This document shows positions 5,871 to 9,384 of a stretch of DNA of 10,704 nt, one piece after another. The position numbers were made by a program, and so were the translations under genes. The stretch lies in IMG/VR virus record IMGVR_UViG_2698536392_000007. One strand, written 5' to 3'. This DNA comes from a virus. Its lineage: Duplodnaviria; Heunggongvirae; Uroviricota; Caudoviricetes. How positions within the stretch are numbered: position 1 is the stretch's first letter; every line of letters begins with the position of its first letter. The notes beneath the pieces were generated by a model that did no database searches, was not told the origin of the DNA, and saw only the letters and a list, made by a program, of their open reading frames with translations.

Positions 5871-7808
5871 GTGACTCTTAAACGGGCCTGTTCCCTGCTG
5901 ACGGTGAAATCCTTCAGTGAGGATGAACGGGTGATCACCGGGATTGCGTCAACGCCTTCTCCGGATCGGGATGGTGACATCCTGGAGCCGGAGGGGGCGG
6001 AGTTTGGCAGTGCGATCCCGTTTCTCTGGCAGCATGACCATTCCCGCCCGGTAGGCCAGTGTACGGTGCGTCGGGGCAGGGAAGGGCTGGAAATCACGGC
6101 AACGCTGGTGAAGCCCGTACCGGATATGCCGTCGCAACTGGCAGCCCGACTGGATGAGGCATGGGCAGCCATTAAGACCGGGCTGGTCAGGGGGCTTTCT
6201 GTGGGCTTCCGGGCTCATGAATACACCTTTCTGGACGGGGGCGGAATGCATTTTCTGCGCTGGGAACTGATGGAGGTATCTGCCGTCACCGTTCCTGCGA
6301 ATGCGGAATGCACCATCCAGACCATTAAATCTTTCGACCGACCGTTTTCTGCCGCGTCCGGCAACCGGAGACCGGTGGTGAAAACAGCATCTTCTGCCGG
6401 CGCTTCGGCACAGTCAAAAACCCTTTTTCATAAGGAAAAGTCAGCAATGAATATTGGTGAACAGATTAAAAGTTTTGAAAACAAGCGTGCGGCGCTGGCA
6501 GCCTCCCTAGAGGAGATCATGACTAAAGCCGCAGAAGAAGGCCGCACGCTGGATGTGGAGGAGGAGGAGCACTACGACAACACCGCGGCGGAAATCCGTC
6601 AGGTGGATGCGCACCTGAAGCGCCTGCGTGAACTGGAAGCCGGTAAGGCCGCCACGGCACAGCCGGTGAAACAGGCTGGTAACGGTGACGTGGTGACGGT
6701 GGCCTCTGCGCCGGTGATCCGTGTGGAGCAGAAACTGGATAAGGGGATTGGTTTTGCACGTTTTGCCAAATCGCTGGCCGCGGCTAAAGGTGTCCGCTCC
6801 GAAGCCCTGGAAGTGGCCCGCCGTCAGTATCCGGATGACAGCCGTCTGCATCATGTTCTGAAATCGGCGGTGGGGGCGGGGACCACCACAGATCCACAGT
6901 GGGCAGGCAGCCTGTCTGAATATCAGGAATATGCGCAGGACTTTATTGATTACCTGCGTCCGCAGACCATTATCGGGCGATTTGGTCAGGGGGGGATCCC
7001 GGCCCTTCGTCAGGTTCCGTTCAATATCCGTGTGCATGCCCAGGTGTCCGGCGGAGCTGCCGGCTGGGTGGGGGAGGGTAAGGCCAGACCCCTGACGAAG
7101 TTTGATTTTGAGTCCATCACCTTCAGTCATGCGAAGGTGTCGGCCATTGCGGTACTGACGGAAGAGCTGATCCGTTTTTCCAGTCCGGCTGCTGATGCAC
7201 TGGTCCGTAATGCGCTGGCAGAAGCTGTGGTGGCGCGTCTGGATACAGACTTTGTGGACCCGAAAAAAGCCGCAGTGGCAGATGTCTCCCCTGCGTCCAT
7301 CACCCATGATGTGAAGGGCACGGCGTCAAGCGGTAATCCGGATGCGGATGCCGAGGCCGCGTTTGGCCAGTTTGTGACGGCAAATCTGCAGCCCACCGGT
7401 GCGGTCTGGCTGATGTCCAGCACGAATGCCCTGGCGCTGTCCATGCGTAAAAATGCGCTGGGGCAGAAGGAATATCCGGACATGACCCTGCTGGGCGGGA
7501 CCTTCCAGGGGCTGCCGGTGATTGTCTCCCAGTATGTGGGTGACCAGTTGGTACTGGTGAATGCGCCGGATATTTATCTGGCGGATGACGGTGGTGTGGC
7601 GGTGGATATGTCCCGTGAAGCGTCACTGGAGATGCAGTCTGAACCGACCAGCGACAGCAGCACACCGTCACCGGTGGAGCTGGTCTCCATGTTCCAGACC
7701 GGCAGCGTGGCCATCCGTGCGGAGCGCTGGATCAACTGGCGTCGTCGCCGTACCGCGGCAGTGGCGGTGATCACCGGTGTGAACTACGGAACTGCGTCCG
7801 GCGGCTGA
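5871..7808 (+). CDS. Fused prohead protease (HK97/S78 family) - delta/scaffold-like linker - major capsid protein (HK97 fold)
   Basis: GTG start with AGGAGG 5 nt upstream. The N-terminal ~190 aa resemble HK97-type prohead protease (ITGIASTPSPDRDGDILEPEGAEF...WQHDHSRPVG). The middle is a coiled-coil-like, Glu-rich segment. The C-terminal ~400 aa resemble HK97-family capsid protein (YLRPQTIIGRFGQGGIPALRQVPFN...AAGWVGEGKARP...AIAVLTEELIRFS). Confidence 0.9.
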   Translation: MTLKRACSLLTVKSFSEDERVITGIASTPSPDRDGDILEPEGAEFGSAIPFLWQHDHSRPVGQCTVRRGREGLEITATLVKPVPDMPSQLAARLDEAWAAIKTGLVRGLSVGFRAHEYTFLDGGGMHFLRWELMEVSAVTVPANAECTIQTIKSFDRPFSAASGNRRPVVKTASSAGASAQSKTLFHKEKSAMNIGEQIKSFENKRAALAASLEEIMTKAAEEGRTLDVEEEEHYDNTAAEIRQVDAHLKRLRELEAGKAATAQPVKQAGNGDVVTVASAPVIRVEQKLDKGIGFARFAKSLAAAKGVRSEALEVARRQYPDDSRLHHVLKSAVGAGTTTDPQWAGSLSEYQEYAQDFIDYLRPQTIIGRFGQGGIPALRQVPFNIRVHAQVSGGAAGWVGEGKARPLTKFDFESITFSHAKVSAIAVLTEELIRFSSPAADALVRNALAEAVVARLDTDFVDPKKAAVADVSPASITHDVKGTASSGNPDADAEAAFGQFVTANLQPTGAVWLMSSTNALALSMRKNALGQKEYPDMTLLGGTFQGLPVIVSQYVGDQLVLVNAPDIYLADDGGVAVDMSREASLEMQSEPTSDSSTPSPVELVSMFQTGSVAIRAERWINWRRRRTAAVAVITGVNYGTASGG

Positions 7809-7852
7809 GTCTGATGAGGAGGGCGGGAGGTGAGAGCATCCCGCAGTAACTG

Positions 7853-8074
7853 ATGGCAAAAATCCAGTATCTGCAGGGCACGCATGATGCCCGGGCCGGG
7901 GATATCCGTGATGTGGCACAGCCGTGTGCGGAGGTGCTGGTTCGCCTGGGGAAGGCGGAGTACATCACAGTGCGACGTCCGGCAGGTCAGAAAAAGAAAC
8001 GTGATGCGGAGCATGGCGAATGTGGAACCTTTTGCGGCGAACCCGAAAAAACCAGAAATCAGGACGTGACGTAA
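7853..8074 (+). CDS. Small hypothetical protein between the capsid and portal genes
   Basis: 73-aa ORF MAKIQYLQGTHDARAGDIRDVAQPCAEVLVRLGKAEYITV... using host-preferred codons (ctg, cag, gcg, ccg, cgt, atc). I recognise no family. It overlaps the first 55 nt of the portal ORF as called from ATG 8020. Confidence 0.4.
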   Translation: MAKIQYLQGTHDARAGDIRDVAQPCAEVLVRLGKAEYITVRRPAGQKKKRDAEHGECGTFCGEPEKTRNQDVT

Positions 8075-9384
8075 GAGAAGTGGGCTGGCGGTCCCTGTTT
8101 CAGGCGGTGGCTGAGCCTTTTGCCGGTGCCTGGCAGCAGGGTGTGAAAGCCGATCCGGAAACCGTTTTGTCCTTTCACGCGGTGTTTTCATGCATTTCGC
8201 TGATATCCCAGGATATTGCCAAAATGCGGCTTCGCCTGATGCAGACTGATGTACAGGGAATACGCCGGGAAAAGCGGCAGGGAGATACTGCCCGTCTCTG
8301 TCGTCGTCCTAATGCGCAGCAGAATCGCATCCAGTTTTTTGAACTGTGGCTGAATTCCAAATTGCGTCACGGCAATACGGTGGTGCTGAAAATCCGCAAC
8401 CCCCGGGGGCAGATCAAAGAACTGCGTATTCTGGACTGGAGCCGGGTTGAACCTCTGGTGGCGGATGACGGCGACGTGTTCTACCGCATCACGCCGGACC
8501 GGAACTGTGGGATCACAGAGTCGGTGACGGTGCCTGCCCGGGAGGTGATCCACGACCGTTTTAACTGTTTTTTTCATCCGCTTGTGGGGCTGCCGCCGGT
8601 GTATGCCGCAGGACTGGCCGCCATGCAGGGGCATCATATTCAGGAAAATTCGACGTATTTTTTCAGAAATGGCGGGCGACCATCAGGCGTGATTGAGGTC
8701 CCCGGCAGTATTACGGAAGAAAACGCGAAAAAACTGAAGGGGAACTGGGACAGCGGATATACGGGCGAAAATGCCGGGAAGACGGCCATACTGAGCAACG
8801 GGGCAAAATACAGCCCCACGACGTTTTCACCGGTGGATGCGCAGACGGTGGAACAACTGAAAATGACGGCTGAAATTGTCTGTTCGGTGTTCCGTGTCCC
8901 GGCCTACAAGATTGGCGTTGGCCACCCGCCTTCCAGTGACAACGTGGAGGCGCTGGAGCAGCAGTATTATTCCCAGTGTCTGCAGACGCTGATTGAGTCC
9001 ATTGAGCTGTTACTGGATGAGGCGCTGGAAACGGGGGAAAACGAGAGCACGGAGTTTGACGTCACCACGCTGCTGAGAATGGACAGCGAACGGCGCATGA
9101 AAACACTGGGTGAATCGGTGAAAAATACGCTTCTCACGCCCAATGAGGCCCGTAAACGTGAGAACCTGCCGCCCCTTGCCGGCGGTGATGCACTGTATCT
9201 TCAGCAGCAGAACTACAGTCTGGAGGCGCTGTCCCGTCGTGATGCCCGTGAGGACCCGTTCGCGTCGGCCGGGAAAACAGTTTCAGCACAGCTGCCTGAC
9301 GGCGCATCTGACGGTAATAAGGCAATCAGTGAAACAGAGCATGATGCAGTGAAAGCGATGTTCAGGGGGATACTGAGAAAATGA
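8020..9384 (+). CDS. Portal protein (HK97-family portal)
   Basis: Portal signature motifs: ETVLSFHAVFSCISLISQDIA near the N-terminus, FFRNGGRPSGVIEVPG...LKGNWDS...GKTAILSNGAKY, and SVFRVPAYKIGVG. ATG 8020 has GGAG 8 nt upstream, but the first 20 codons use rare codons (cga, aga, gta, ctt, ttg); the true start may be GTG 8080. Confidence 0.9.
   Translation: MWNLLRRTRKNQKSGRDVREVGWRSLFQAVAEPFAGAWQQGVKADPETVLSFHAVFSCISLISQDIAKMRLRLMQTDVQGIRREKRQGDTARLCRRPNAQQNRIQFFELWLNSKLRHGNTVVLKIRNPRGQIKELRILDWSRVEPLVADDGDVFYRITPDRNCGITESVTVPAREVIHDRFNCFFHPLVGLPPVYAAGLAAMQGHHIQENSTYFFRNGGRPSGVIEVPGSITEENAKKLKGNWDSGYTGENAGKTAILSNGAKYSPTTFSPVDAQTVEQLKMTAEIVCSVFRVPAYKIGVGHPPSSDNVEALEQQYYSQCLQTLIESIELLLDEALETGENESTEFDVTTLLRMDSERRMKTLGESVKNTLLTPNEARKRENLPPLAGGDALYLQQQNYSLEALSRRDAREDPFASAGKTVSAQLPDGASDGNKAISETEHDAVKAMFRGILRK

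Follow-up and report, generated by a model that had tools for sequence, protein, structure and literature searches.

A fused prohead protease-scaffold-capsid gene of Shiga toxin phage-type prophages, with a conserved internal start that suggests a nested coat protein gene

The closest described relatives of the genes considered here are found in BP-4795, phage 2851, Stx2 phage 1717, YYZ-2008, JLK-2012 and Shiga toxin (Stx) phages of the Stx1a-, Stx2a- and Stx2c-converting types. The genes in question, a fused prohead protease/capsid gene and the portal gene downstream of it, occupy positions 5871-9384 (+ strand) of a 10,704-nt stretch of DNA from virus record IMGVR_UViG_2698536392_000007; the whole stretch is called the window below. 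Over 5871-9384 these relatives are 92-97% identical in DNA, encode a fusion protein of the same length (645 residues) and keep the same gene order: HNH endonuclease, terminase small subunit (TerS), terminase large subunit (TerL), fusion gene, a small open reading frame (ORF), portal, post-portal gene and connector. They differ in the length of the post-portal gene and its fusion to the portal gene, nothing essential. The fused gene and the capsid-before-portal order are already known, being annotated in published Stx-converting and related phages: BP-4795 ORF56 is listed as "putative major head protein/prohead protease", and its phage 2851 counterpart is EP2851_53. More distant is gp03 of the Pseudomonas phage PAJU2, 48% identical in protein sequence over the full length and recorded as "major head protein; prohead protease fused capsid protein"; PAJU2 has the same gene order but another host, and its capsid and portal genes are separated by two small ORFs where the window has one. 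The original prediction held that such fusions exist in databases, and PHROGs family phrog_617, ORF56 and gp03 are cases in point. The protease-capsid fusion architecture has been described as common in siphoviruses with small genomes (PMC9671004). Fusions of the NF045541 type (scaf_prot_MCP2, prohead protease/major capsid protein fusion) have the same domain order in a different sequence family; the window's protein scores 48.7 bits against a cut-off of 525 for this model, over residues 49-262 only, and falls outside it.

HK97 resembles this locus in its protease family, in its capsid fold and in having the scaffold built into the N-terminus of the coat protein, with no separate scaffold gene. 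It differs in that the protease (gp4) and the coat protein (gp5) are encoded by two genes, with a stop codon and 2 nt between them, and in that its gene order is TerL, portal, protease, capsid. Duda and colleagues are said to have shown in 2013 that the HK97 protease enters the procapsid through its own C-terminal region.

[quoted passage not shown] The same logic would apply here if an internal start in the fused gene is used, with one difference: in lambda, HSV-1 and HFTV1 the common part is a scaffold protein that leaves the capsid, whereas here it would be the coat protein together with a delta-like scaffold. A full-text literature search, with most subscription journals outside its coverage, found actinophage protease-capsid fusions and the nested protease/scaffold precedents, no described internal initiation in protease-capsid fusions, and no expression data or virion proteomics for these phages.

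The genes of the window were annotated by comparing ORF calls, Pfam, NCBIfam, PHROGs and PGAP. The fused gene, its parts and its downstream neighbours, all on the + strand, are as follows:
5860..5865, + strand: Shine-Dalgarno (SD) sequence AGGAGG of the full-length ORF, read from the sequence, 5 nt 5' of the GTG at 5871
5871..7808, + strand: fused prohead protease / delta-like scaffold / HK97-fold capsid gene, 645 residues, 69.2 kDa (PGAP coding sequence WP_047619207.1)
5871..6293, + strand: protease domain, residues 1-141 (PF04586, BLASTP with HK97 gp4, alignment)
6294..6446, + strand: disordered linker, residues 142-192 (predicted local distance difference test score, pLDDT, below 50; length and sequence vary across the family)
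6432..6436, + strand: internal SD-like AAGGA, 10 nt 5' of the ATG at 6447; motif conserved in the family
6447..6449, + strand: in-frame ATG (M193), the proposed start of a 453-residue, 48.4-kDa scaffold + capsid product; a nearly invariant column in the alignment of 33 diverse homologues (alignment A2)
6447..6881, + strand: delta-like scaffold region, residues 193-337 (AlphaFold2, TIGR01554; C-terminal boundary inferred)
6882..7805, + strand: HK97-fold shell domain, about residues 338-645 (PF05065, Foldseek)
7853..8074, + strand: 73-residue ORF, function unassigned (phrog_829, E = 7e-39; hypothetical in PGAP)
8020..9384, + strand: HK97-family portal gene, 454 residues (PF04860, TIGR01537)

Does the fused gene yield one product or two? 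Several features converge on M193, which lies exactly between the linker and the scaffold region. Methionine occupies this position in 118 of 150 representatives, and stand-alone capsid homologues start exactly here (e.g. MNYAEQISAFETKRAA vs MNIGEQIKSFENKRAA). Of the 71 fused genes, 66 have ATG as the codon here; the five others have TTG (two), GTG (one), GTG one codon upstream (one) and CTG (one). After dereplication below 70% identity, 37 of 40 genes have an SD core 4-mer between -17 and -5; the background is 14.6% for other codon positions and 15.5% for other ATGs in frame (binomial p ~7e-28, a statistic that ignores shared ancestry). The SD-core profile peaks sharply within the 24 nt 5' of the ATG, with only 1-4 of the 40 genes per 12-nt bin from -72 to -25. 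The motif itself takes several forms: TAAGGAAAAGTCAGCA-ATG in this window, AAAGGAA in other Enterobacterales, AAGGAGGG in many Alphaproteobacteria and AGGAGG-7 nt-ATG at M197 of PAJU2, where the internal SD is stronger than in this window. What is kept is the nucleotide motif: its codon phase shifts (AAG GAA here, AAA GGA in Salmonella, AAG GAG GGC in Alphaproteobacteria), and with it the encoded residues (K-E here, K-G in Salmonella, K-E-G, E-E-G or Q-E-G elsewhere), while the remaining linker is free to vary in sequence and length. A conserved internal start codon preceded by a putative ribosome-binding site at a domain boundary is what a nested in-frame gene would have, and the alignments point to both.

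The reading we favour, with a probability of about 0.6, is that a fused protease-scaffold-coat gene with the portal gene downstream yields two in-frame products. Translation from the GTG at 5871 would give the 69.2-kDa protease-linker-scaffold-shell protein, and translation from the ATG at 6447 a scaffold-shell protein of 48.4 kDa, an analogue of HK97 gp5. The full-length form would be minor and the protease-free coat protein major; both would co-assemble via the common scaffold and shell, with the scaffold helices and the attached protease pointing inward, so that a subset of subunits would bring the protease inside the procapsid. Once the shell has assembled, the protease would cut away the scaffold region, the linker and its own domain, and the mature shell protein that remains would have ~300 residues, with its N-terminus expected between residues ~262 and 340. 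The original prediction took the fusion to imply that the protease reaches the procapsid while joined to the coat protein; given the conserved internal start and SD, this probably holds for only a fraction of the subunits. For the lineage as a whole, long-tailed Shiga-toxin phages included, it is slightly better than an even bet that the fused gene is a nested pair in which most coat protein would be made without protease, the full-length form serving as a minor protease tether. If the internal start is used, this gene would show how a phage sets its protease-to-coat ratio within one gene, and the nesting strategy known from lambda, from herpesviruses and from a virus of archaea would extend to the coat protein itself. 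As originally stated, the finding adds nothing new: its features are annotated in published Stx-converting and related phages and in about one in four complete E. coli genomes. What may be new is the conserved internal start alone, which suggests that most coat protein is made without protease. A weak start codon (GTG in this window) was also considered as a general damper of the long form, and is not supported: 32 of 37 relatives with an assignable start use ATG.

Among 87 related loci, 71 have a single ORF, 14 have adjacent protease and capsid genes and two are truncated at a contig end. In the 14 split loci the break falls exactly at the position of M193; in three of them (L052, L074 and L082) the protease and capsid genes are in the same frame with one stop codon (TAA) between them. 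Proteases of the lineage that stand alone share a conserved C-terminal tail, ...RAKPFVIRxI; fused forms lack this tail, which may serve to target the protease to the procapsid. When the capsid parts are placed in a neighbour-joining tree, split forms are interspersed with fused ones, which indicates that the fused and split states have interconverted many times. A nested arrangement would explain both this free switching and the frequent tolerance of stop gain or loss before M193.

If the coat protein is one continuous ORF with a strong start, why invoke a second product at all? The simplest rival is a polyprotein: every coat subunit would be the 645-residue fusion carrying its own protease, and the internal ATG and SD would be relics of an earlier start of the capsid gene, or tolerated by chance. 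The ORF is indeed uninterrupted with a strong 5' SD, all annotations give one protein, and by a rough estimate ~415 protease + scaffold parts (~13-16 MDa) would fit a T=7 procapsid. Several observations also weigh against two products. This window's internal SD, AAGGA, is a modest one (10-nt spacing, -6.2 kcal/mol, ~15th percentile of in-gene positions), and the 5' start of the fusion gene has a perfect AGGAGG. Because fused and split states interconvert, some fusions may be young, and the SD and ATG could be partial relics of repeated recent fusions of separate genes. The enrichment test for the SD takes no account of shared ancestry, and the SD-core profile peaks a second time at +84 to +95, owing to an EEGR motif conserved in the protein; where residues are conserved, protein conservation can thus mimic an SD signal. 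The two-product model is built from sequence features, and both of its products are predicted. Nor does comparison with HK97 gp5, by which the maturation cleavage site was to be located, help: the capsid part gives no significant BLASTP match to gp5, the site is not placed, and since the two do not align, the mature N-terminus is not placed by homology. Against the polyprotein stand the start codon and SD kept in 37 of 40 deeply diverged fused lineages despite a freely varying linker, and the nature of the ATG replacements, which are mostly GTG or TTG. The residues upstream of M193 are not conserved, unlike the EEGR motif. Strong internal SDs such as AAGGAGGG are not expected to last in a coding region without a function, although this is debated. 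A polyprotein is possible, though clearly the less probable of the two; it keeps its substantial minority weight because the internal SD is modest in this window and the two-product model draws on sequence.

That one gene encodes protease, linker, delta-like scaffold and HK97-fold shell, in that order, does not depend on which products are made. The 645-residue ORF had been described as an HK97-type prohead protease, a coiled-coil Glu-rich scaffold-like segment and an HK97-fold capsid domain, and Pfam, NCBIfam, AlphaFold2, Foldseek and composition all agree with this description. The full-length "major head protein" family phrog_617 is matched end to end (E = 4.7e-258; residues 1-639 vs positions 7-626 of 626). 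An AlphaFold2 model built on the 33 diverse homologues (mean pLDDT 72.9) has a beta-rich domain at residues 5-139, disorder at 142-192, long helices at 195-222 and 229-261, disorder at 265-285 and three short helices at 293-332, followed by the HK97 fold. The helical segment is Glu-rich, with 16 Glu/Asp in 67 residues (195-261), and the scaffold region (193-337) is presumed to be removed at maturation. The shell domain, modelled with a pLDDT of ~80-93 over residues 380-590, is matched by Foldseek in the Protein Data Bank with probability 1.0 to the capsid proteins of Bxb1, HK97, D3, T5 and a gene transfer agent (GTA), for Bxb1, HK97, D3 and T5 over 270-300 columns; Phage_capsid (PF05065) matches residues 386-635 (55 bits vs a cut-off of 24.2). 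TIGR01554 (major_cap_HK97) matches residues 204-584 (78.5 bits vs a cut-off of 27.5), and its alignment starts from model position 3, which indicates that the capsid model includes the delta-like N-terminal part. A sequence search of solved structures gave only weak capsid matches (Bxb1, E = 0.003) and no match for the protease part.

By sequence homology the N-terminal domain is an HK97-family serine protease homologue: Peptidase_S78 (PF04586) matches residues 48-152 (36.8 bits vs a cut-off of 21), and BLASTP aligns the N-terminal part (residues 1-192) with HK97 gp4 (E = 7e-9, 29% identity over 148 residues). In this alignment S110 pairs with gp4 S114 (GLSVGF vs GMSVGF) and E135 with E141, and H55 falls one position off H65, before a common PVG motif. 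H65 and S114 are the catalytic His and Ser of gp4. The catalytic Ser was thus located as the original prediction had proposed, the His to within one alignment position, and the domain searches uphold its reading of this region as a protease. Could the domain nevertheless be a degenerate, inactive protease fold that serves only as scaffold, with maturation cleavage absent or left to a host enzyme? It does stay below the stricter equivalog model TIGR01543 (47.1 vs a cut-off of 59), but H55 (6033-6035), S110 (6198-6200) and E135 (6273-6275) are invariant in the 33 diverse homologues, two of the three align with their gp4 counterparts and the third is one position off, the Pfam match is above cut-off, and Pfam and PGAP recognise no second protease gene in the module; an inactive domain is accordingly very improbable.

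The fusion is widespread. Over 5871-9384, prophages of E. coli 2013C-4830 and 2012C-4227 match the window at 100% identity; the module is found in 1252 of 5426 complete E. coli genomes, at up to 7 copies per genome, and in 93 phage records, among them Stx1a-, Stx2a- and Stx2c-converting phages, BP-4795, 2851, 1717 and JLK-2012. PGAP annotates the identical 645-residue coding sequence, whose exact sequence occurs on 172 contigs and whose 90%-identity cluster has 9916 members. Homologues at 73-78% identity (Salmonella, Enterobacter, Klebsiella, Serratia, Kosakonia, Pantoea) are 644-648 residues long with both Pfam domains, and an exhaustive HMMER search over 1.84 billion cluster representatives (50% identity clusters) returns 1166 clusters with E < 1e-30, the best 150 representatives of which (38-54% identity) are nearly all full length, at 630-680 residues. 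That the two genes were joined artificially, whether through an error of sequencing or assembly, a frameshift error, or a mutation that made a pseudogene as the prophage decayed, as the two-gene state of 14 of the 87 loci and singleton chimeras in databases might suggest, can be dismissed, because the fusion is conserved across thousands of sequences, in complete genomes, in records deposited as Stx-converting phage genomes and at full length in homologues of 38-78% identity and in the family phrog_617. The chimeras themselves, each from one short contig, are P0002, which joins TerL to the fusion (1079 residues), and P0003, which joins the fusion to the portal (784 residues); most likely they stem from faulty assembly or gene calling and do not represent real architectures.

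In phage records the fusion goes under several names ("major capsid protein", "major head protein Gp17", "phage prohead protease", "capsid and scaffold", "hypothetical protein"), and such inconsistent naming hides its dual nature. Together with the "frameshifted pseudogene" label on the portal gene (below), it can mislead calls of prophage intactness in enterohaemorrhagic E. coli genomes.

The position of the portal gene downstream of the capsid gene, noted from the start, is borne out by the profile matches at 8020-9384, which make the portal assignment unambiguous at the level of sequence (PF04860, E = 1.4e-79, 268 bits vs a cut-off of 39.1; TIGR01537, 364 bits vs a cut-off of 112). This order had been presented as a departure from the canonical one. 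It does depart from HK97, which has the portal before the protease, but it is not peculiar to this locus. We took 80 relative loci, one genome per species, from Enterobacterales, Pseudomonas, many Alphaproteobacteria, Betaproteobacteria and Xanthomonadales, and from metagenome-assembled genomes assigned to Flavobacteriaceae, Clostridia, Binatia, Vicinamibacterales and others. Nearly all sufficiently long loci have the order TerL, protease-capsid, portal, post-portal homologue, connector. Since the order is kept in about 80 loci of many phyla, it is a stable lineage trait, and a local rearrangement that moved the portal gene is ruled out; judged by synteny, the capsid-before-portal order is a fixed, ancestral trait of a large, old and widespread prophage lineage.

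These genes form the head-assembly module of an E. coli prophage of the Stx-phage type, lambdoid and long-tailed; the window is the late region of this prophage, with all genes listed on the + strand. The features around the fused gene and the portal gene are:
307-1390, + strand: holin, lysozyme and spanin genes (ORF, domain, PHROG and PGAP annotation)
1647-2144, + strand: KilA-N protein gene (ORF, domain, PHROG and PGAP annotation)
2933..3298, + strand: HNH endonuclease gene (PF01844, E = 2e-6; phrog_589; same call in PGAP)
3586..4149, + strand: TerS gene (PF03592; phrog_641, E = 2.4e-68)
4146..5807, + strand: TerL gene (PF03354 and PF20441)
5832..5849, + strand: terminator-like G+C hairpin GAACCGC-TCCG-GCGGTTT, followed by a T-run (within 5832-5858), from a consensus scan
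9381..10118, + strand: post-portal gene, 245 residues, ATGA overlap with the portal stop (phrog_1289, phrog_2271)
10115..10441, + strand: gp6-like (Ad1) head-tail connector gene (PF05135; phrog_40)

The HNH gene lies 5' of the terminase genes, a placement typical for HK97-like cos packaging modules. The 3' part of the TerS gene contains a 27-bp tandem repeat (4029-4082; 2.0 copies, 85% match), which encodes a Lys/Ala/Gly-rich C-terminal tail. TerL lies immediately 5' of the fusion gene in nearly all related loci. The hairpin between the TerL and capsid genes, just 5' of the capsid SD, is a pattern match only, and such matches are no more frequent than in shuffled sequence; it would be read through in a Q-antiterminated late operon. 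A promoter scan over 5600-8200 found none, and an Rfam search of the window gave no match. As predicted, no separate scaffold gene is recognised, either by Pfam or PHROGs in the window or in the PGAP annotation. The 73-residue ORF, the only one between capsid and portal, shares 55 nt with the start of the portal gene and is kept in Enterobacterales relatives only; distant loci have 200-500 nt or other small ORFs in its place.

The end of the portal gene is also read in more than one way. PGAP treats the portal gene and the downstream ORF (8020-10118) as one "frameshifted" portal pseudogene. In phage 2851 they form a single 859-residue ORF, and the junction differs only in having GGGGGG vs GGGGG (the G-run at 9365-9369 here); in the window the -1 frame is open from 9345, and the portal stop and the next ATG overlap as ATGA at 9381-9384. 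A programmed -1 frameshift at the G-run was considered, as a slip there would give the same fused product, but the ATGA overlap also exists, with no G-run, in a relative from Salmonella (capsid protein 77% identical), and the fused portal allele is itself common (exact sequence on 806 contigs; cluster of 6387 members). The split allele is common too (cluster of 2367 members). These are likely two translationally coupled genes with a G5/G6 indel polymorphism, frameshifting being the less likely reading, and the "pseudogene" label is probably misleading.

The post-portal homologue adjoins the portal gene in nearly all loci and is conserved mainly over its C-terminal ~90 residues; its C-terminal domain has a weak CBM_5_12 match below the Pfam cut-off. 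Its length varies by a 162-bp (54-residue) tandem repeat: no tandem array was detected in the post-portal gene of this window (245 residues), and BP-4795 (locus L004, 8176-8927) has 4.6 copies at 95% identity in a protein of 461 residues. The position of this gene and its occasional fusion to the portal gene are reminiscent of minor head proteins that associate with the portal, such as SPP1 gp7 and Mu F.

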